Source: a virus
Virus record (IMG/VR): IMGVR_UViG_3300020193_000015
Length of the DNA: 64,000 nt
Strand: one strand, 5' to 3'
The notes beneath the pieces are model-generated. The model was not told the DNA's origin, did not search any database, and saw only the letters and a program-made list of their open reading frames with translations. The translations under genes and the position numbers were made by a program. Positions 3,080 through 49,640 of this stretch are shown piece after piece. Numbering within the stretch: the first letter of the stretch is position 1; each line of letters begins with the position of its first letter.

Positions 3080-3845
3080 ACCATTGATGATGTTGTCCCT
3101 GCCGAATACTGGAACTGATTGGTTGGTTAAATGTTTATTAAAGACTAATAAGTATAATTATTCTAGGGAATTTTTCAACCCAATGGTGAACGAAAAGTAT
3201 TGTGATATTTTATCGAAATGTTTTGGGTGTGAATATGCTTCTCTTGCGCATTTGATTGCTAAAGAGCCTATTTTGTCTTTGGCAACAAGTGTTTTAAATG
3301 ATAGTTGGAATAAAGAAACATTTGATTTTACTAAAGAGACATTTTCTGCTTTTAAAATTGATTTCTTTTTTAAAAAATTTACTTGTTTTGTTTTATTCAG
3401 AAAAATAGAACAAAGTATGCCGTCGAATGTCTTTGAAAGGATATATCCATTAAGAAGCTGGTATGATGCTATGTTTTTCTCTTTAATAGCCAATAAAGCA
3501 TCTCTTGAGCCAGATATAAGAAAAATGGTTGAAGTTACTGAAAAATATGGTTTGATAGAGAGACAAATAGCTGCTTTTGTGATATATTACAGCAAGTTAC
3601 TTAAAGAAGCTAAAGATCGTCAACTTATTGTTTTGGAATATGATAAATTGCTTTCCTTTTCAGCGGTAAAATTAGTTGATTATTTGACGATTCCATTTAT
3701 TTGCAATCCTACATTAACTGCATCTGAAGTTTTGGAAACTAGAAAACCACGAATGGATAATTTTTGCTCATTAGGGAAAAAAGCGGTTAAATTTAAAGAA
3801 CTAATCACATCTTTTGCACCAGAAGAATACAAGGCTTTATGTTAA
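3072..3845 (+). CDS. hypothetical protein, possibly sulfotransferase-like
   Basis: N-terminal LPNTGTDWL resembles the PAPS-binding PKSGTTW motif; weak. Confidence 0.3.
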   Translation: MNKPLMMLSLPNTGTDWLVKCLLKTNKYNYSREFFNPMVNEKYCDILSKCFGCEYASLAHLIAKEPILSLATSVLNDSWNKETFDFTKETFSAFKIDFFFKKFTCFVLFRKIEQSMPSNVFERIYPLRSWYDAMFFSLIANKASLEPDIRKMVEVTEKYGLIERQIAAFVIYYSKLLKEAKDRQLIVLEYDKLLSFSAVKLVDYLTIPFICNPTLTASEVLETRKPRMDNFCSLGKKAVKFKELITSFAPEEYKALC

Positions 3846-8156: not shown

Positions 8157-8401
8157 TGAAGTGCCAATGTCGATCTAAAGACTTTTTCCATGAATTGCAA
8201 TGTCAAGGTGTTCAAAAGCATTCTGGGAAACATTGGGCTTATTGTCCGGCTGGTAATTTAATTTTGTGGCTCAATAAAAGGGAAGTTAAAAAGATAACTC
8301 CAATTACAATTATGCTTGAAGACATACCACCTGGCAGTAAAAGTTATATTTCTCCAGATAAGATGTTTGAAAAGAGATGGACAGTAATAAGGAGAAAGTA
8401 A
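8156..8401 (+). CDS. hypothetical protein
   Basis: ORF track. Confidence 0.35.
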   Translation: MKCQCRSKDFFHELQCQGVQKHSGKHWAYCPAGNLILWLNKREVKKITPITIMLEDIPPGSKSYISPDKMFEKRWTVIRRK

Positions 8402-8614
8402 ATGGGCGTAAGCTATAGTTCCAACCTTTGTGTTGGTGTTAAGATGAGTAAGGTATTTGAGATAAAGAATAAAACTGTACTTAAAACTAAATACAATCCT
8501 GACACTGGTGTTCCATATGAAAGCAAACTTATAGAAAAGGAGCTTTTGTTTTTTGGAAAAGTAATAGAAGAACCTGTTAAGTATTATCCTGGCGAATGGG
8601 CACTGCAACTATAA
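8402..8614 (+). CDS. hypothetical protein
   Basis: ORF track; the stop lies inside the 46-bp element. Confidence 0.35.
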   Translation: MGVSYSSNLCVGVKMSKVFEIKNKTVLKTKYNPDTGVPYESKLIEKELLFFGKVIEEPVKYYPGEWALQL

Positions 8615-16415: not shown

Positions 16416-17588
16416 ATGCTTGTAGCAGAACGACATTATATACAAGAAACACTTGAAATTGTCCGACTATGTACATTAAGCAAAGAACTTTACAATAAAT
16501 GCAATTTCTTGATGAGGCAAGCATGGTTTATAAATGAAAAATTACCTAATATAAATTTGCTTGTTCGAGAGACAAAGCCATTAGACTGTTACAAAAACCT
16601 TCACAACACCAAAACAGCAGCACAAACAATACGTAAATGTCTTGTAGATTGGGCAAACTTCCTCAAAACCCTGAAAGCATACAAGAAAGACCCAACAAAA
16701 TTCAAAACTAGACCTAAACCGCCTTATTATAAAAATAAACTCACACAAATTATATTCTTTAATGAAACTATCAAGAAAAGACCATTGAAACAAGATGTAA
16801 TTACCCCAACGAACAATCTATTTTCAATTAAAAGTGACATTAAAGAATTTAAGCAAGTAATGATTACTCCTAAAACATTTGGTTTTATAGTAGACATTCA
16901 ATATGAAAAAGAAGTCAAGAAAGTAAAAGTAAGCAAGAATAGGTTTGCCTGTATAGATGTTGGTGTAAATAATTTAGCTACGATAACTTCAAACCAACTG
17001 GAGCATCCCATATTGGTTAATGGTCGCATACTAAAAAGCATCAATAGATTCTATAATAAAAAACCTAATAAGAATAATAGTAGGAAACGTTATTTCCGTA
17101 TTGAGAATTATTTCCATCATGCTTCTAAATTTATAATTGATTTATGTATTAAACATAAAATTGGCAAAATCATTATCGGTAAGAATGATGGTTGGAAGCA
17201 ATTTTCTAAAATACGAAAAGTACAAAACCAAAATTTTCAATATATTCCTTTTTATAAATTTTTAGATAAGATTAAGTATAAAGCAACATTAGCGGGCATT
17301 GAAGTTATATTTACTGAAGAATCATATACAAGTAAAGCAAGTTTCCTTGACCATGATTCAATACCAACTTATAAAAAAGGCAATAAACCTCCTACTTTTT
17401 CTGGTAAAAGAGATAAAGGAATGTATAGAACATTTAGACCTATTCATGCTGACGTGAATGGAAGTTTAAACATAGGATGTAAAGTATTCGGGGATAAAGT
17501 CTACAAGGCTTTCCCTGATAGGAGCATTGCCGCAATGCCAGTACGAATTAATCCATTGAAGATTTTTGCATATAACAGCAAAAATTAG
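16416..17588 (+). CDS. tnpB: TnpB-like (IS200/IS605 OrfB / Cas12-ancestor) RuvC-fold protein, 390 aa
   Basis: RuvC-I FACIDVGVNNLATIT; RuvC-III HADVNGSLNIGCKVFG; TnpB-like C-terminus; no CxxC..CxxC zinc finger; RuvC-II glutamate not evident (IIIGKND). Confidence 0.65.
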   Translation: MLVAERHYIQETLEIVRLCTLSKELYNKCNFLMRQAWFINEKLPNINLLVRETKPLDCYKNLHNTKTAAQTIRKCLVDWANFLKTLKAYKKDPTKFKTRPKPPYYKNKLTQIIFFNETIKKRPLKQDVITPTNNLFSIKSDIKEFKQVMITPKTFGFIVDIQYEKEVKKVKVSKNRFACIDVGVNNLATITSNQLEHPILVNGRILKSINRFYNKKPNKNNSRKRYFRIENYFHHASKFIIDLCIKHKIGKIIIGKNDGWKQFSKIRKVQNQNFQYIPFYKFLDKIKYKATLAGIEVIFTEESYTSKASFLDHDSIPTYKKGNKPPTFSGKRDKGMYRTFRPIHADVNGSLNIGCKVFGDKVYKAFPDRSIAAMPVRINPLKIFAYNSKN

Positions 17589-30847: not shown

Positions 30848-33800
30848 ATGTCGCAATTTAAGACAGTTGAGAATTTTAAGGATATTTTAATGTTAAAAGA
30901 AAAAACTACTTTGCGATCCTATCAGCTGCTTCTATTAGATAATCATGATTTAGTAGAAAAGACGATAGATGTTTATACAAAAGGAGCTTCTGCTTGGTTG
31001 GACTTTTGGCTTACTGTTTTGGGCGGTATAGAATTTGAGATGATTCCATTATCTCCTCTTAGCAGTTATTGTATTACTAAAAAATTAAAGAGGAAATCCC
31101 AAGAAGATAAAGAAATATTTATTCCTATTAGCGAAGAAGCTTTATTGTTTGGCTGTTGGTTTTCTTTAGAAACGAATAGCAATTCGCCATTCATTATTTC
31201 TGTTCAAGATGTTTGGAACAAGTTCAAATCTTATCTGCCGAATAATGTGAAAATAAGCTACAATTGGGAAAGAACTATCAAAGCACAAATTAATTCCTTT
31301 GTGTCTGAGAATACTTGTTGGGTAGATAGAAGAAAAGCATTTCAAGACCTATCATTTAAAATTAATGTTGCTGATCTTGTTTGTAAAAAAGATTTTTGGC
31401 TTAATAAAGATGTGGATAGCAAATTGTATATGAGAAGTGCCTTGGGGCAATGGTGGAATGATGGAACAAAATCAGATTGGGTTAATCTTAAAATTAAATG
31501 TGAACAGTCTATAAAATTTATCGAACAAGAATCAGATATCAGAAATGCAAAAACAAAAATTCTACAATCTCTTGGATTGCCAGATATAGCAGAAGCTAAA
31601 GAAATTGGCAAAGCTTATGGCAAAAAAGGAAAGCCTTCCAGAGTGTTTATTAAATTGGAAAAATTAACAGAAGATACTACCAAAGACCAATTGGTTAAGG
31701 AATTTCAAGAAGAAATTGTAAACGCAGAAGAACATGTTGCTTTTAAGCGTTGTCCCTGGCATGCGAAAATTAGAGAAAACATTGAAAAAGCAATAGGTGT
31801 AAGTTATTTTAATGAAAAAGGTAATAGTAGTCAAAATAATTTTGGAGAAATGGGCAATCTTGCTCTTGAAAAAATTAAAAGTTGGAAATCTAATTTTTTT
31901 AATGTCTTAGGAGAAAGATATCATAACTGTAAATCTGATTTCCATGATTCAGAGGTAAAAGAATGGTTTGAAGAATACAAAAAAACAAACAAACAACTTA
32001 GAAATAGCAGCCTTTCAGGACTTGAAAAAGTATTTGATTTACTAGATAACAAGTCTTTTGAAGATGCTATTAAAGAAGCCCAAAAATCCTACAACATTCT
32101 TGGAAGAAGATTTGGAGACGCTAACTTTTTCAACTTTTTAGGCAATAAAATTCAGTCCAGAAAGGACAAAGATTGGTTGAAATTAATACGAGAATATGAT
32201 AATTGGGATAATGTAAATTACAAATTTATAAATCATAAAAGTCCAAGACTTAAGCATTTTGGGGATGATCACTTAGCCACTCCTAGATTTGGGGAGTCAA
32301 GACCAACAGGCAATATCAAAAGCACAACTGGAAATAGTCACTCAATTACATTGAATGTTTTCGATGGCAAATCATTCAAACTGACTAAAATTAATTCTGC
32401 TTGCAAAAGATTGTCTAATGAAATTAAAGATAATCAATCAATTAGACAGACTAAGTTATCTGGAAAAATCTTTGAAAACTATCGAATTCTTCCTAAGAGT
32501 TTAGTTAAAAAGGGTGGACTTAAACTTTGTAAACAAAATGATAAATGGTATGCCCATCTAACAGTCAATTTGCCAGTATTTGAAAAAGCTTCATGGCAAA
32601 AATTGATGAAAACCGGCACCATAATAATGAGTATAGACCCTGGTATTAGAAGTTCTATATCATATACTATATTTGAAATATTTGAATGTGATCGAGATAC
32701 AGATTATTTTATTGAAAATGGCATTACTCATGTGAAAATACATTCATGGGAAGATCATAGTGGTACTAAGTTTAAAGTGCCTCATAATAATTTGTGGGTT
32801 AAATTGTTGGAATGGGGACATATTCGTGATCTACAACCTATTGGCGAAAATGGTTATCGTCAGTGCAGATTAGATGGTGGAACAAACACCAATTTAGACT
32901 CAGAAGAAATAGAATTTTGGAAATATCTTTTAATAACTGGTGTTGAGCAAAAAGACATGCCTGATCCTTTGCCAAAAAGGTCTGAATATTCTAGAATTAT
33001 TGCAAATTTAATTAACAAGTGGTATACAAACAAATCAAAAGAAATTACAGATAAGGTTAAACAACTAAATATTAATGATCCTGTAGAGTTTTCAAAAACT
33101 TTACAACATGTAAGAAAAGAAAGCGATTTATCATCAGAATTATTGATAAAGGCGTCCCAAATATTATTTGTAAATAATTCAGATAAAATTGGGAGAGGCG
33201 GGTTATCCTATGCTAGAATTAAGATGCTCCAAACACTTTCTTCTGCTTGTAATAAATTCTTAAAAGTTAAAGAAAATAATGCAGAAATTATTGAATTTCA
33301 GAATTTTCTTAGAAAGAAAATTAATGCCATAAGAACGGAACGAGTAAGAATTACTGTAAACAAAGTTTTGCATGAAGCTGTCAATAACAAAGTAAATCTA
33401 ATTCTATATGAAAATACCCAACTAAAATCTTCTTCCAGTTCCCCCAGAGGTCTTAATAGAAGTATAACATCCTGGTGCCCGTCAAAAGTAATCGAAGAAT
33501 TGAAAAAACAAATAGATTTGTTGCCAATTTCTATAATGGGAGTAAACTCTGCTTATACGTCTCATAACTGTTTTGTAACTTGCAAGAAAAAATGTCGTTA
33601 TGATAAAGTTCATTTAGATGATCTTAATATTGAGCCTTGGAAAGAAAGAATAACCGATATTTTTACAAAAAAACAATTAAGCTTAACTGATTGTTTGTTG
33701 AAAAAAGGTTGGGAAAATTTCCTGAAAGAAAATGACTTGATGAGCTACAAACAAATACCTGAATTTGTTAAAAACAAAAAAGCTTTTTGTTTAGTTCCCT

Positions 33801-33910
33801 CCAGGACAGGAAAATTGTTTGTTACAGAAATTGGAGAATTGAATGCTGATATCGCCGCTGCTGCTACAATAGGAATGAAAGGTCTTGCAATAATCCTATC
33901 CAAAGCTTAA
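30848..33910 (+). CDS. cas12: type V CRISPR effector, Cas12-like (1020 aa; size and repeat suggest the Cas12i-like compact class)
   Basis: split RuvC motifs in TnpB/Cas12 order: RuvC-I MSIDPGIRSS (D about 32636), RuvC-II LILYENTQL (E about 33410), Cys-containing stretch SHNCFVTCKKKC, RuvC-III ELNADIAAAATIGMKGL (D about 33849); a 26-repeat array follows directly. Confidence 0.75.
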   Translation: MSQFKTVENFKDILMLKEKTTLRSYQLLLLDNHDLVEKTIDVYTKGASAWLDFWLTVLGGIEFEMIPLSPLSSYCITKKLKRKSQEDKEIFIPISEEALLFGCWFSLETNSNSPFIISVQDVWNKFKSYLPNNVKISYNWERTIKAQINSFVSENTCWVDRRKAFQDLSFKINVADLVCKKDFWLNKDVDSKLYMRSALGQWWNDGTKSDWVNLKIKCEQSIKFIEQESDIRNAKTKILQSLGLPDIAEAKEIGKAYGKKGKPSRVFIKLEKLTEDTTKDQLVKEFQEEIVNAEEHVAFKRCPWHAKIRENIEKAIGVSYFNEKGNSSQNNFGEMGNLALEKIKSWKSNFFNVLGERYHNCKSDFHDSEVKEWFEEYKKTNKQLRNSSLSGLEKVFDLLDNKSFEDAIKEAQKSYNILGRRFGDANFFNFLGNKIQSRKDKDWLKLIREYDNWDNVNYKFINHKSPRLKHFGDDHLATPRFGESRPTGNIKSTTGNSHSITLNVFDGKSFKLTKINSACKRLSNEIKDNQSIRQTKLSGKIFENYRILPKSLVKKGGLKLCKQNDKWYAHLTVNLPVFEKASWQKLMKTGTIIMSIDPGIRSSISYTIFEIFECDRDTDYFIENGITHVKIHSWEDHSGTKFKVPHNNLWVKLLEWGHIRDLQPIGENGYRQCRLDGGTNTNLDSEEIEFWKYLLITGVEQKDMPDPLPKRSEYSRIIANLINKWYTNKSKEITDKVKQLNINDPVEFSKTLQHVRKESDLSSELLIKASQILFVNNSDKIGRGGLSYARIKMLQTLSSACNKFLKVKENNAEIIEFQNFLRKKINAIRTERVRITVNKVLHEAVNNKVNLILYENTQLKSSSSSPRGLNRSITSWCPSKVIEELKKQIDLLPISIMGVNSAYTSHNCFVTCKKKCRYDKVHLDDLNIEPWKERITDIFTKKQLSLTDCLLKKGWENFLKENDLMSYKQIPEFVKNKKAFCLVPSRTGKLFVTEIGELNADIAAAATIGMKGLAIILSKA

Positions 33911-33959
33911 AATGGCTCTGTTCGTTGATCTTTGACATCTTATTTTTAAGTTTATTTTA

Positions 33960-33996
33960 AACAGAAAGCAAACTGTTATCAGTTTTTCTTTCTGTT
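33960..33996 (+). terminator. hairpin AACAGAAAGCAAACTG..CAGTTTTTCTTTCTGTT downstream of cas12
   Basis: about 16-bp imperfect stem, T-rich. Confidence 0.55.
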
Positions 33997-33997
33997 C

Positions 33998-34035
33998 AGT
34001 CTCTCGCCCTTATTTAAAAATAAGGGCGAGAGACT
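33998..34035 (+). terminator. perfect 15-bp stem AGTCTCTCGCCCTTA/TAAGGGCGAGAGACT with loop TTTAAAAA
   Basis: read directly. Confidence 0.6.
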
Positions 34036-34259
34036 ATGTGGTGAAAAACGTTGGAAAAGAAAATTTTTCTTAAGTCCTGATGAATTAAGCTTTTGCGATA
34101 AAGTTATCCTGTGCTGCCTATCGCTCGTTTTAAGTCTTTATTTGAAAAAGGTTTATGGCATCAAACCAATAAAATTCGGATATGCAGTTGTTCTAAAGTA
34201 ATTGCCTCTCGCATACTTGTTTGTAAGTTGTTTTATTAAAAGGCTTTATGCAAATGAGC

Positions 34260-36080
34260 GTTGCAATAGATTAAAACAATGTGCTGTTATTGGCACTTCG
34301 GCGTCATCGTCGGCATGGCCGCCCTGGTCCTGGTTGCAATAGATTAAAACAATGTGCTGTTATTGGCACACCAATGGCCAGTTTCAGAAAAGCACTTTTT
34401 CAATGTTGCAATAGATTAAAACAATGTGCTGTTATTGGCACAAATAAAACCAGCCAGTAACCGCTATATCCGCAAAAGTTGCAATAGATTAAAACAATGT
34501 GCTGTTATTGGCACTATTTGATTGTACATTGCATTACAATCGCCGTTTTTGTTGCAATAGATTAAAACAATGTGCTGTTATTGGCACCCAAAGGCCAGTC
34601 TCCGCCTTTGGCGCTCAAGAGCGTTGCAATAGATTAAAACAATGTGCTGTTATTGGCACCGATACAATGAAAGTAATCACGTGCACGATGGCAAGGTTGC
34701 AATAGATTAAAACAATGTGCTGTTATTGGCACGTCAAATATGGAGTAGGATGAAGGGCGAATTTTGGAGTTGCAATAGATTAAAACAATGTGCTGTTATT
34801 GGCACTGGAGGCTAAGGACTAACAAGAAGAAACTAGGAATGGTTGCAATAGATTAAAACAATGTGCTGTTATTGGCACGGAGTCCAGATACCATAGTTAA
34901 TTCGTTGCAATAGATTAAAACAATGTGCTGTTATTGGCACACTAATCAGCCAATCTTCTTAGGTGTTGATCTTTCGTTGCAATAGATTAAAACAATGTGC
35001 TGTTATTGGCACCGAACCGCCCTTGCCGCCGCCGTACACCTTAATGGTGTTGCAATAGATTAAAACAATGTGCTGTTATTGGCACTATCCGCAAAAAAAG
35101 AATGTGTCAATGCAAGGGTATTGTTGCAATAGATTAAAACAATGTGCTGTTATTGGCACCCAGCTTGGCAATCTGTCCTTCAATGTGCGTTCTTTGTTGC
35201 AATAGATTAAAACAATGTGCTGTTATTGGCACTATAGTGTATGCACCGACTAATATATAATAGTAGCGTTGCAATAGATTAAAACAATGTGCTGTTATTG
35301 GCACTTTTTGGTCCTCGTCGTGGCCGTACACGTGATCGAGGTTGCAATAGATTAAAACAATGTGCTGTTATTGGCACTCCAGTTATTGCTTGTTACTGAG
35401 AGAAGGGCTGGGCAGCGTTGCAATAGATTAAAACAATGTGCTGTTATTGGCACTATAGCAATCGATTATCTCCGCATCGTCCAGTAGATGTTGCAATAGA
35501 TTAAAACAATGTGCTGTTATTGGCACCTGCGCAGCGTAGAAGGTTGTTTCGTCGATGACCTGGTTGCAATAGATTAAAACAATGTGCTGTTATTGGCACA
35601 AACGTGACAAAGAGGTTGCAATAGATTAAAACAATGTGCTGTTATTGGCACATGAATTCGCCAGTGGCGACATGTCGGTCCGTGTCTGGTTGCAATAGAT
35701 TAAAACAATGTGCTGTTATTGGCACTTGATGCTCTGCCCCAGACTTTCGTGGAAATCCGTGTTGCAATAGATTAAAACAATGTGCTGTTATTGGCACGGC
35801 ATTTGCTTAGCCACCTCCGCACTCTTACACTTCTGTTGCAATAGATTAAAACAATGTGCTGTTATTGGCACAATGTTCCAGACTTGCTACTACCTAATAT
35901 GTTTCCGTTGCAATAGATTAAAACAATGTGCTGTTATTGGCACGTGCGAAGGTTGCCGGACTGCTTATGTTGCAATAGATTAAAACAATGTGCTGTTATT
36001 GGCACTGGAACGCACTTTTTCTTTTTTGCGATGCAGCAAGGAAGTTGCAATAGATTAAAACAATGTGCTGTTATTAGCAC
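34260..36080 (+). CRISPR. CRISPR array of 26 repeats and 25 spacers; repeat GTTGCAATAGATTAAAACAATGTGCTGTTATTGGCAC (37 bp); terminal repeat is degenerate (..TTATTAGCAC)
   Basis: repeats enumerated at 34260, 34333, 34405 and so on to 36044; spacer lengths are mostly 35-37 nt, with outliers of 15, 25, 25, 38 and 39 nt; the repeat 3' end forms GTGC-TGTTATTG-GCAC; the degenerate repeat at the 3' end implies a leader at the 5' (cas12-proximal) side. Confidence 0.95.
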
Positions 36081-36216
36081 TCCAAGCAGCAACATTCCTG
36101 ATCGTTTAGCTGAAATTTATAGTAAAGATGATCCTGTGCCGCCTCAAGTATGGGAAGCAGTTAAAGAAGTCCGAAAAGGAATGGGCATGATGTGGCATTA
36201 CGCAGGAGATTAATTT

Positions 36217-37450: not shown

Positions 37451-37638
37451 TAACAAGTGATGATCCTCTTACTGCAAAATTGATAAAGCTTTTGAACCGG
37501 GCACATGATATAATATGGCTCAATGCTTTAGAACCTATTTATAAAGAAGAGGTTTTGTCACAAGCAGAAATTGAAGCTTTTCTGATGGAAGTTGAGGAAG
37601 TAATATATAAGCCAAACCCAAAAGCCCCTGTAGTTTAA
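37429..37638 (+). CDS. hypothetical protein
   Basis: ORF track. Confidence 0.3.
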   Translation: MVREKLMITSDDPLTAKLIKLLNRAHDIIWLNALEPIYKEEVLSQAEIEAFLMEVEEVIYKPNPKAPVV

Positions 37639-37697
37639 TTGTGCAAAACGTGCTACTTTAGATAGCTAAGATGTGGGTTCGAATCCTGCCAGGGGCG
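37624..37697 (+). tRNA. tRNA with anticodon UUA (candidate ochre/amber suppressor tRNA)
   Basis: manual cloverleaf: acceptor GCCCCTG/CAGGGGC, D-stem GTTT/AAAC, anticodon stem TGCTA/TAGCT with loop CTTTAGA, variable loop AAGAT, T-arm GTGGG-TTCGAAT-CCTGC, discriminator G; unusual G at position 37. Confidence 0.55.
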
Positions 37698-38948: not shown

Positions 38949-39641
38949 ATGAAAGATTATCTAAGAACAATTAACTTGGGGTAGGGAGTCGGTGAATCTG
39001 GCAAGCAAGCATGTTGGATGAGCGCTCTTTCTGCTCATTTGGGTGGGGAATGGACCGATACATTAGATTGCGTTGATCCTATCATTAATAGCCTTTGCAT
39101 AATTATTAATGATCTTTATTATATGGACAATAAGGGCAGAACCAATGACATTATGAAATTTGGTTTGTTTGCTCCATTGGGAACTAAAGGCACTTGGAAA
39201 GATACTGAGAAAAGACTATTTAAACTTGCGGATATTGCTATAAGAAAATGGGCAGCAACCGTGAGTTTTCATACAGGATTTATACAAGATGAAAAATTCC
39301 TAAGAAATTTGGATGAAATTGTAGATTTGCCTAGTCTTCGTAAAGCTAGAAATGATATTGAAATTGCAGCTTGTTATTTAATGAGTGAATTGGACATAAT
39401 AATTTATCATATAAAAGGCATTTTGATAATCCACGAAACTTGCAAGAGAGAAATGATAGCTAATTTATATAAGTTTACTGGAATTTTGATAGATCATATG
39501 GGTAGAAACGTTCTCGTAAAAGATCATTTATATTCTGCACTAAGAGAACTAATTGAAATGGGTCCACATGCACCAGAAGAACCTGAATATCCTGCTTGTG
39601 GTATTCCAAAGTTTCAAGAACTAGTAGGTATTAAAACATAA
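38949..39641 (+). CDS. paralog B1 (N-terminal MKDYLRTINLG.. module); in-frame TAG at codon 12 (38982..38984)
   Basis: ATG 1 nt after the upstream stop; the frame is continuous with ORF 39018..39641 except for the single TAG; the aligned position is Ile or Phe in the paralogs. Confidence 0.5.
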
Positions 39642-39653
39642 ACTAAAAGAATT

Positions 39654-39682
39654 AGTGGATTAAAACAATGTGCTGCTGGCAC
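39654..39682 (+). repeat. orphan degenerate CRISPR repeat GATTAAAACAATGTGCTG-CTGGCAC (3-nt deletion in the hairpin loop)
   Basis: 18 of 18 nt plus TGGCAC match the array repeat; lies between the 38949 gene stop and the 39694 gene start. Confidence 0.55.
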
Positions 39683-39693
39683 ATAGGTATTAA

Positions 39694-39936
39694 ATGTCAA
39701 AGTTAACTGTTAGGACTATCTTTAATGGTGCAATGAATGCCAAGTATGAAGTTAGTATTCCTCTTAACAAGAAAGAAACAGAGGAACTTAAAAGTGCTTT
39801 GGAAGTGGTAAGAAAGTATGAGAAACAAGCTTTAGACGCCACAAAGGTATCTAGAAAGACAGAAGCAGTTGTAATTGATTATCTGGTTAAATCAAATAGT
39901 GTGCTTATCTCTGTTGAAGCTGGAGGTTTTGGTTAA
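39694..39936 (+). CDS. hypothetical protein
   Basis: ORF track. Confidence 0.35.
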   Translation: MSKLTVRTIFNGAMNAKYEVSIPLNKKETEELKSALEVVRKYEKQALDATKVSRKTEAVVIDYLVKSNSVLISVEAGGFG

Positions 39937-49569: not shown

Positions 49570-49640
49570 GGCCCCATAGCTTAAGAGGAAAGCAGGGTGC
49601 TTATAACGCCAAGACGGTAGTGCGACTCTACCTGGGGCTA
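49570..49640 (+). tRNA. tRNA-like gene, anticodon UAU by manual fold (atypical T-loop TGCGACT, G1-U72)
   Basis: acceptor GGCCCCA/TGGGGCT, D-stem GCTT/AAGC, anticodon stem GGTG/CGCC with loop CTTATAA, T-stem GGTAG/CTACC; a TATATAAT promoter-like box lies just upstream. Confidence 0.4.

Follow-up and report, generated by a model that had tools for sequence, protein, structure and literature searches.

A type V-I CRISPR locus on a large T4-like phage from Lake Tanganyika and the probable sources of its spacers

The 64,000-nucleotide (nt) stretch of viral DNA analyzed here (IMG/VR record IMGVR_UViG_3300020193_000015; the window in what follows) carries a CRISPR array downstream of a gene for a large effector protein. 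Judged by its sequence, this locus is a divergent type V-I (Cas12i) system with intact catalytic residues, and its carrier is a large, AT-rich (36% GC), T4-like phage from Lake Tanganyika. On balance, we favor the view that the spacers of this phage-borne locus were drawn from at least two pools of DNA, and that the GC-rich pool comes from bacterial, presumably host, DNA. The features on which the argument depends are as follows.

30848-33910, + strand: gene for a Cas12i-family effector, type V-I, of 1020 amino acids (aa), assigned by family profile, PADLOC and RuvC residues
33911-34259, + strand: putative leader, the intergenic region between cas12i and the array, with a hairpin and two copies of a CCnCTCGC...TAAG motif
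34260-36080, + strand: CRISPR array of 26 repeats of 37 nt (GTTGCAATAGATTAAAACAATGTGCTGTTATTGGCAC) and 25 spacers, with transcription assigned to the + strand
34297-34332, + strand: spacer S1, 36 nt, 69% GC, leader-proximal
34515-34550, + strand: spacer S4, 36 nt, 31% GC
34879-34903, + strand: short spacer S9, 25 nt
35600-35614, + strand: very short spacer S19, 15 nt
35944-35968, + strand: short spacer S24, 25 nt
36044-36080, + strand: terminal repeat, with G33 changed to A at position 36076

Array structure, spacer composition and the match of spacer S1

The spacers comprise one of 15 nt (S19), two of 25 nt (S9 and S24), six of 35 nt, eleven of 36 nt, three of 37 nt and one each of 38 and 39 nt. 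The lengths and number of the spacers agree exactly with the original prediction, as does the G-to-A change in the terminal repeat, which puts a U-A pair in place of a U.G wobble in the 3′ hairpin and preserves the stem. The 3′ end of every repeat forms a Cas12i-type stem-loop (GUGCUG-UUAU-UGGCAC). Because this is where the stem-loop lies in Cas12i CRISPR RNAs (crRNAs), the array can be oriented on the + strand, with the leader at 33911-34259, the newest spacer being S1 and the distal end being marked by the degenerate repeat. The full array, with all 25 spacers and the variant terminal repeat, recurs in assembly JGI 3300020197 (contig L095), and parts of it recur in JGI 3300020603 (L098) and ENA ERZ27247963 (L096 and L001). 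These four further contigs, drawn from three assemblies, agree with the window in all their spacers, down to the 15- and 25-nt units and the altered last repeat, so the irregular lengths are not the assembly artefact for which the original prediction had allowed.

Spacer composition is mixed. Mean spacer GC is 46.4%, versus 35.8% in the remainder of the window. Ten of the 25 spacers reach at least 50% GC and three at least 60% (S1 69%, S11 64%, S5 63%), thresholds attained by 6.7% and 0.33%, respectively, of the window's 36-mers; the binomial probability of ten or more such spacers at 50% GC or above is about 2e-6. The earlier description of the spacers as mostly far more GC-rich than the phage therefore holds for the excess itself but not for the set, 15 of 25 lying below 50%. 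A second-order Markov test, trained on phage and Gemmataceae DNA and calibrated on TTN-flanked 36-mers, separates the spacers further. Six of them (S1, S5, S11, S15, S18 and S20) are exceeded by at most 0.2% of the phage's TTN-flanked 36-mers and are incompatible with a phage-like composition, while the incompatibility of S24 and S21 is weaker (at most 1.6%). In all, about eight spacers are incompatible with such a composition, and a low-GC source would fit about 15-17. Along the array, the GC-rich spacers are mixed in among the AT-rich ones, and the GC-richest, S1, is the newest.

Read as FGVIVGMAALVL, spacer S1 has a G or C in the third position of every codon. A metagenome scan that covered S1, its wobble positions left free, returned one locus, which is identical to the spacer at 36 of 36 positions and has TTC at its 5′ flank (L005, 7603-7638, − strand). 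The target contig, Ga0194131_10000260 (VGYC01000006.1; 85 kb, 65% GC), is binned as Planctomycetota bacterium K_Offshore_120m_mx_222, and its rpsA protein is 83-88% identical to those of Gemmataceae metagenome-assembled genomes (MAGs). The protospacer falls in the gene of a 472-aa HAMP/HATPase sensor kinase, where it codes for the second transmembrane helix. Since the neighbors of the kinase gene are a class I tRNA synthetase gene, rpsA (ribosomal protein S1), a DUF1501 gene and a xylose-isomerase-like gene, the target lies in a chromosomal context and not in a mobile element. The MAG was recovered from K_Offshore_120m and the phage from K_Offshore_80m (Ga0194132), a sample of the same station, and from sister samples of Lake Tanganyika, K_Offshore_80m being a sample label of a study of that lake (preprint 10.1101/834861).

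A GC-rich host was one of the sources that the original prediction had proposed for its targets, and the perfect, TTC-flanked match of S1 to a 65% GC Gemmataceae chromosome supports it for one spacer. On this evidence, a Gemmataceae (Planctomycetota) bacterium is most likely the host of the phage. Against 1.29 Mb of Gemmataceae loci, the other spacers gave partial matches at chance level (25 of 36 positions for S11), and the window as a whole gave no match besides S1. An uncultured, large, AT-rich phage would in this way be linked to a Planctomycete lineage through the phage's own CRISPR memory; to our knowledge, very few phages are known for that host lineage.

A second protospacer, that of the AT-rich spacer S4, points to a different kind of source. 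In Logan contig L099 (1-359), 323 nt of unrelated sequence of 45% GC runs into S4 and from there directly into the terminal repeat. TTC precedes S4, and S4 extends an open reading frame (ORF) on the opposite strand. This contig is probably a chimeric de Bruijn-graph join through the S4 protospacer on an element of 45% GC. The 40-aa ORF fragment of the S4 target has no database relative, and the non-array DNA of the contig found no match in the phage collection. The whole array likewise found none there, and in the plasmid collection only chance-level look-alikes at E values of at least 2 (a 23-mer in gdhA, IncP traF). In a scan of IMG/VR, spacers were merged in pairs as IUPAC patterns with at least 14 shared plain bases; none of the twelve spacers covered, S1, S11, S15 and S20 among them, had an exact match. 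Self-targeting, a possibility raised at the outset, was not borne out in the 62 kb of the window outside the array, where the best alignment reaches 14 of 16 positions.

Two further observations concern the array itself. Spacers S11 (35031-35039) and S15 (35323-35331) have a common 9-mer, GCCGTACAC, at the same offset (positions 19-27), which reads VYG in the reverse frame of both and may be due to chance. At the distal end, an ORF (36031-36213) runs across the terminal repeat and goes on for a further 44 aa (PSSNIPDRLAEIYSKDDPVPPQVWEAVKEVRKGMGMMWHYAGD). Its length is put at 25-60 aa by the gene callers of other assemblies, and it could represent a small gene or a remnant next to the array.

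The Cas12i effector, its leader and the carrier phage

The assignment of the effector depends on its family. As a single sequence, the 1020-aa ORF directly upstream of the array has no Pfam domain and no match in the PDB, and word-indexed protein searches with the single sequence or a profile returned only the effector itself. An exhaustive HMMER search, however, recovered 39 cluster representatives (50% identity) at E values of 0.001 or below, most of them of about 1000 aa. The profile built from this family (A1) matches Cas12i2 (6ltp) over its full length with an E value of 5e-87 (profile positions 5-992 versus chain positions 4-1029) and Cas12i1 at 3e-64, whereas Cas12b is matched over partial length at 1.5e-29. 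The best PADLOC model for the effector is also Cas12i (E value 4e-24). The RuvC triad D597 (IDPG), E855 (YEN) and D1001 (NADIAA) falls in nearly invariant columns of the family and aligns with the RuvC I, II and III motifs of a solved relative. No Cas12i relatives were found in IMG/VR.

The repeats and protospacers are consistent with the same assignment. Characterized Cas12i crRNAs have a 23-nt repeat handle with a simple 3′ stem-loop and pair with their target over about 19-20 nt (PMC8190297). A 6-bp 3′ hairpin is predicted both in the present repeat and in that of a related locus (L087), and both recovered protospacers (S1 in L005/L006 and S4 in L099) are preceded by 5′-TTC, which fits the TTN protospacer-adjacent motif (PAM) of Cas12i (n = 2). 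V-I systems have an array but no other cas genes (PMC10691335), and PADLOC and Pfam scans found no Cas1, Cas2 or Cas4 among the 102 ORFs of the window. The locus thus looks like a working type V-I CRISPR system, for which crRNA processing and cleavage are predicted. A trans-activating CRISPR RNA (tracrRNA) was considered and ruled out, as the window contains no anti-repeat: no antisense match to the repeat exceeds 10 nt. Elsewhere in the phage, a TnpB-like ORF (16416-17585, 390 aa) matches IS605 OrfB, a Cas12f1-like TNB domain and the PADLOC Cas12f models; the related locus L089 likewise has a TnpB gene near cas12i.

The region between cas12i and the array is conserved in the family. Its two CCnCTCGC...TAAG boxes, at about 34113-34131 and 34205-34231, are kept in all seven aligned family loci (L086-L092), and the distance from the start of the second box to the first repeat is exactly 54 nt in the window, L087 and L090. 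Within the 64 kb, CTCTCGC is confined to the leader region. A strong hairpin 3′ of cas12i (33997-34037, GTCTCTCGCCCTTATTT/AAATAAGGGCGAGAGAC) includes this leader-box motif in its stem, and several family loci have a TTTGACA(T/A)C box 3′ of the cas12i stop codon. The leader boxes and the TTTGACA(T/A)C box may be leader or promoter signals.

Irregular spacer lengths are also found in relatives of the locus. Spacers of L090 measure 36, 38, 19, 10, 35, 28, 25 and 38 nt, and those of L087 measure 15, 36, 31, 37, 33, 36 and 31 nt, with one unit bearing a truncated repeat of 19 nt that consists of the 3′ handle only (3553-3623). Locus L089 has a mini-array (8279-8416) whose repeats, of about 25 nt, are likewise reduced to the 3′ handle, in a phage-like context that includes a UvrD helicase and an RNA ligase. 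The carrier of L090 is 36.5% GC and its spacers reach 54% GC. It had been suggested that the short spacers mark deletion scars or non-functional units. Deletion scars are unlikely, because all the repeats flanking short spacers are intact, and related Cas12i arrays are equally irregular. Loss of function is plausible for S19 alone: in Cas12i1, the homologue characterized structurally, the heteroduplex spans about 19-20 bp and cleavage of the target strand occurs at a distance of 24 nt from the PAM (PMC8190297), so the 15-nt S19 would be too short to support cleavage and is probably cleavage-dead, while the 25-nt units are long enough for Cas12i.

Assignment of the carrier follows from its genes, which include rIIA (PHROG 612, E value 3e-117), rIIB, endonuclease VII, a clamp loader, homing endonucleases and tRNAs; nearly all genes of the phage sequence are on one strand. 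The closest match of rIIA, at 37% identity, is in a 595-kb uncultured phage (LR756511.1), and the phage sequence occurs in several assemblies, including JGI Ga0194132, Ga0194128 and Ga0194126. An Rfam scan of the window found two tRNAs only (37624-37697 and 49570-49640). The anticodon TTA given by ARAGORN for one tRNA would read the stop codon UAA, yet TAA ends 30 of the 54 large ORFs of the window. The second tRNA, detected by Rfam only, has the anticodon TAT (Ile, AUA) by reading of the loop, and it can be argued, though weakly, that a phage rich in AT would be well served by such a tRNA in a GC-rich host.

A single repeat-like element lies outside the array.

39658-39682, + strand: solitary repeat-like element, GATTAAAACAATGTGCTG followed by CTGGCAC, 3.6 kb downstream of the array

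It matches repeat positions 10-27 at 18 of 18 positions before continuing as CTGGCAC, and thereby forms a handle with a loop shortened by 3 nt and the hairpin retained. The element sits in a 52-nt gap between two genes and has a 10-nt direct repeat on either side (AGGTATTAAA, 39626-39635 and 39685-39694), and the pseudo-spacer on its 3′ side spans the start codon of the ORF at 39694. No second match to the pseudo-spacer occurs within the window, and the 18-mer of the repeat has a single match in IMG/VR, in an unrelated coding sequence.

Origin of the spacers and competing explanations

By analogy with characterized Cas12i enzymes, the leader would drive transcription of the array, and Cas12i would cut the precursor crRNA itself without a tracrRNA. 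Each crRNA would then consist of about 23 nt of repeat carrying the 3′ hairpin and a guide of roughly 20 nt, and targets beside a 5′-TTN PAM would be nicked or cut. As the window encodes no Cas1, Cas2 or Cas4, spacers were probably inserted in trans by an adaptation module of the host, which would read the family-conserved leader. Loose length control of this insertion could yield the occasional spacers of 10-25 nt. The first pool, about 8-10 GC-rich spacers, would derive from GC-rich bacterial DNA, as S1 does. The second pool, about 15-17 spacers of low to intermediate GC, would most likely derive from other mobile elements in the same cells, S4 pointing to an element of 45% GC. A lytic phage loses nothing when the host chromosome is cut, and may gain in takeover, which is why it can acquire and retain spacers of host origin. 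Host targeting may have been selected, for shut-off or DNA degradation, or merely tolerated; both would fit reports on huge phages (PMC7162821), and any benefit to the phage is conjectural. Given a large difference in GC between a phage and its host, composition would by itself distinguish bacterium-derived from element-derived spacers.

Several points weigh against the two-pool account. S1 is the only GC-rich spacer with an identified source, and the 23 spacers other than S1 and S4 are unmatched, the metagenome scan having covered S1 alone. The S4 target is known from a single contig that is probably chimeric, and database searches gave no relative for the protein of this target. The ten spacers of at least 50% GC average 57%, compared with 65% for TTN-flanked 36-mers of the Gemmataceae MAG, so they cannot all derive from this MAG, and sources of intermediate GC are likely. 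Adaptation genes could sit in the phage genome beyond the window, as the phage sequence on record reaches 112 kb. The link to the host depends on the S1 match, and the phage-host GC gap of 29 points is unusual. Phage phiKZ on Pseudomonas is a precedent for a gap of similar size.

A broader combination of these elements is put forward tentatively, as one possibility: a Gemmataceae phage whose self-contained Cas12i array serves as a dual-purpose weapon, with spacers loaded in trans and regulatory short guides. Leader-proximal spacers copied from the host chromosome would guide the nicking or cleavage of its DNA in the course of takeover, and AT-rich spacers would exclude rival elements. Type V-B would be a candidate for the adaptation module acting in trans, as it shares the TTN PAM and has a sub-clade common in Planctomycetota. 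The solitary handle at 39658 and the guides of 10-15 nt may have a regulatory role, as guides that bind without cutting. If this were true, the GC split among spacers would show in a simple way which immunity in phage arrays is host-derived and which is rival-derived.

Among the alternatives to the two-pool account, the one that survives best, though we consider it rather unlikely, is that the GC-rich spacers mainly target GC-rich competing mobile elements, S1 being an exception or lying in an unrecognized mobile region. Phage arrays are known to target competing phages (PMC7162821), seven to nine of the GC-rich spacers are unmatched, and a mean of 57% below the 65% of the MAG might be expected for phages of that host. 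The position of the S1 target, directly downstream of a tRNA synthetase gene and near rpsA on an 85-kb contig, is nevertheless chromosomal; S1, S11, S15 and S20 are among the spacers with no exact IMG/VR counterpart, and the plasmid and phage collections yielded no significant match to the array.

It is quite unlikely that Gemmataceae are not the host, and that the phage infects a low-GC bacterium in which GC-rich spacers were acquired from foreign DNA, through uptake, predation or a broad-host-range element. The distance between the 36% GC of the phage and the 65% of the MAG, together with the dependence of the host link on the spacer match, speaks for this scenario. For a spacer to be captured, however, its source DNA must be present in the array-bearing cell. 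A perfect, PAM-flanked match of the newest spacer to a co-occurring bacterium is a host criterion used elsewhere (PMC7162821), and about a third of the array is GC-rich, which would be much for incidental foreign DNA.

The original prediction had also entertained inheritance of the array from a different background. Recent descent of the array, with or without cas12i, from a GC-rich genome appears very improbable, even though members of the family occur in GC-rich contigs (L087, 59% GC). The composition of cas12i (31% GC; 23% at third codon positions), the repeat (35%) and the leader (33%) is native to the phage, which argues against descent of the array from a GC-rich background. The GC-rich and AT-rich spacers are intermingled, the GC-richest being the newest, and S1 in an array borne by Gemmataceae would be a lethal self-target. 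The chance that length heterogeneity and composition reflect assembly artefact or accident is negligible: repeats often break or collapse assemblies, and L099 is itself collapsed or chimeric, but the same spacers and lengths recur in four further contigs from three assemblies and the GC excess has a P of about 2e-6.

Comparison with known systems

Among type V-I systems, the present locus resembles those of Cas12i1 and Cas12i2 in its effector of about 1000 aa with full-length profile similarity and an intact RuvC triad, and in the window's lack of a tracrRNA-like anti-repeat and of other cas genes. The 37-nt repeat with its simple 3′ stem-loop (...GUGC..GGCAC) and the 5′-TTC-flanked protospacers are also typical of type V-I. 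The effector is, however, so divergent that its link to the Cas12i structures in the PDB needs a family profile, and its 1020 aa fall a little short of the range of 1033-1093 aa given for the family (PMC10734277). The locus further differs from those of Cas12i1 and Cas12i2 in being phage-borne and in its irregular spacer lengths. Together, the recovered relatives (39 cluster representatives at 50% identity) make up a deep sub-clade of Cas12i with a conserved leader and loose control of spacer length. This sub-clade bears on how type V systems without adaptation genes acquire spacers, and it could supply new candidate self-processing TTN nucleases for engineering.

Vibrio phage ICP1, reportedly described by Seed and colleagues in 2013, is said to carry a type I-F CRISPR system with its own adaptation genes that targets an anti-phage island borne by the host. 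The two cases are alike in that a phage-borne CRISPR system is used against DNA residing in the host cell. In contrast to ICP1, the present type V-I locus has one effector and no adaptation genes, and the target identified for it is an ordinary gene of a bacterial chromosome.

The closest parallels are the CRISPR systems of huge phages, for which spacers against the chromosomes of presumed hosts and phage-encoded Cas12i have been documented (Al-Shayeb et al. 2020, PMC7162821). As in those phages, a class 2 effector and an array occur on a large phage without Cas1, Cas2 or Cas4, a spacer matches a bacterium from the same study, and other mobile elements are likely targeted as well. A phage-borne Cas12i with a spacer against a co-occurring chromosome is therefore already known in general terms (PMC7162821). 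The present array differs in having 26 repeats, compared with a median of 6 reported for huge phages, and in targeting a sensor-kinase gene and not a gene of transcription or translation. It also differs in its putative host, a Planctomycete whose GC is 29 points above that of the phage, a gap that makes host-derived spacers stand out by composition. The distinctive aspects of this locus are thus the link to a Planctomycete host, the array of 26 repeats, the compositional split among its spacers and the conserved leader.

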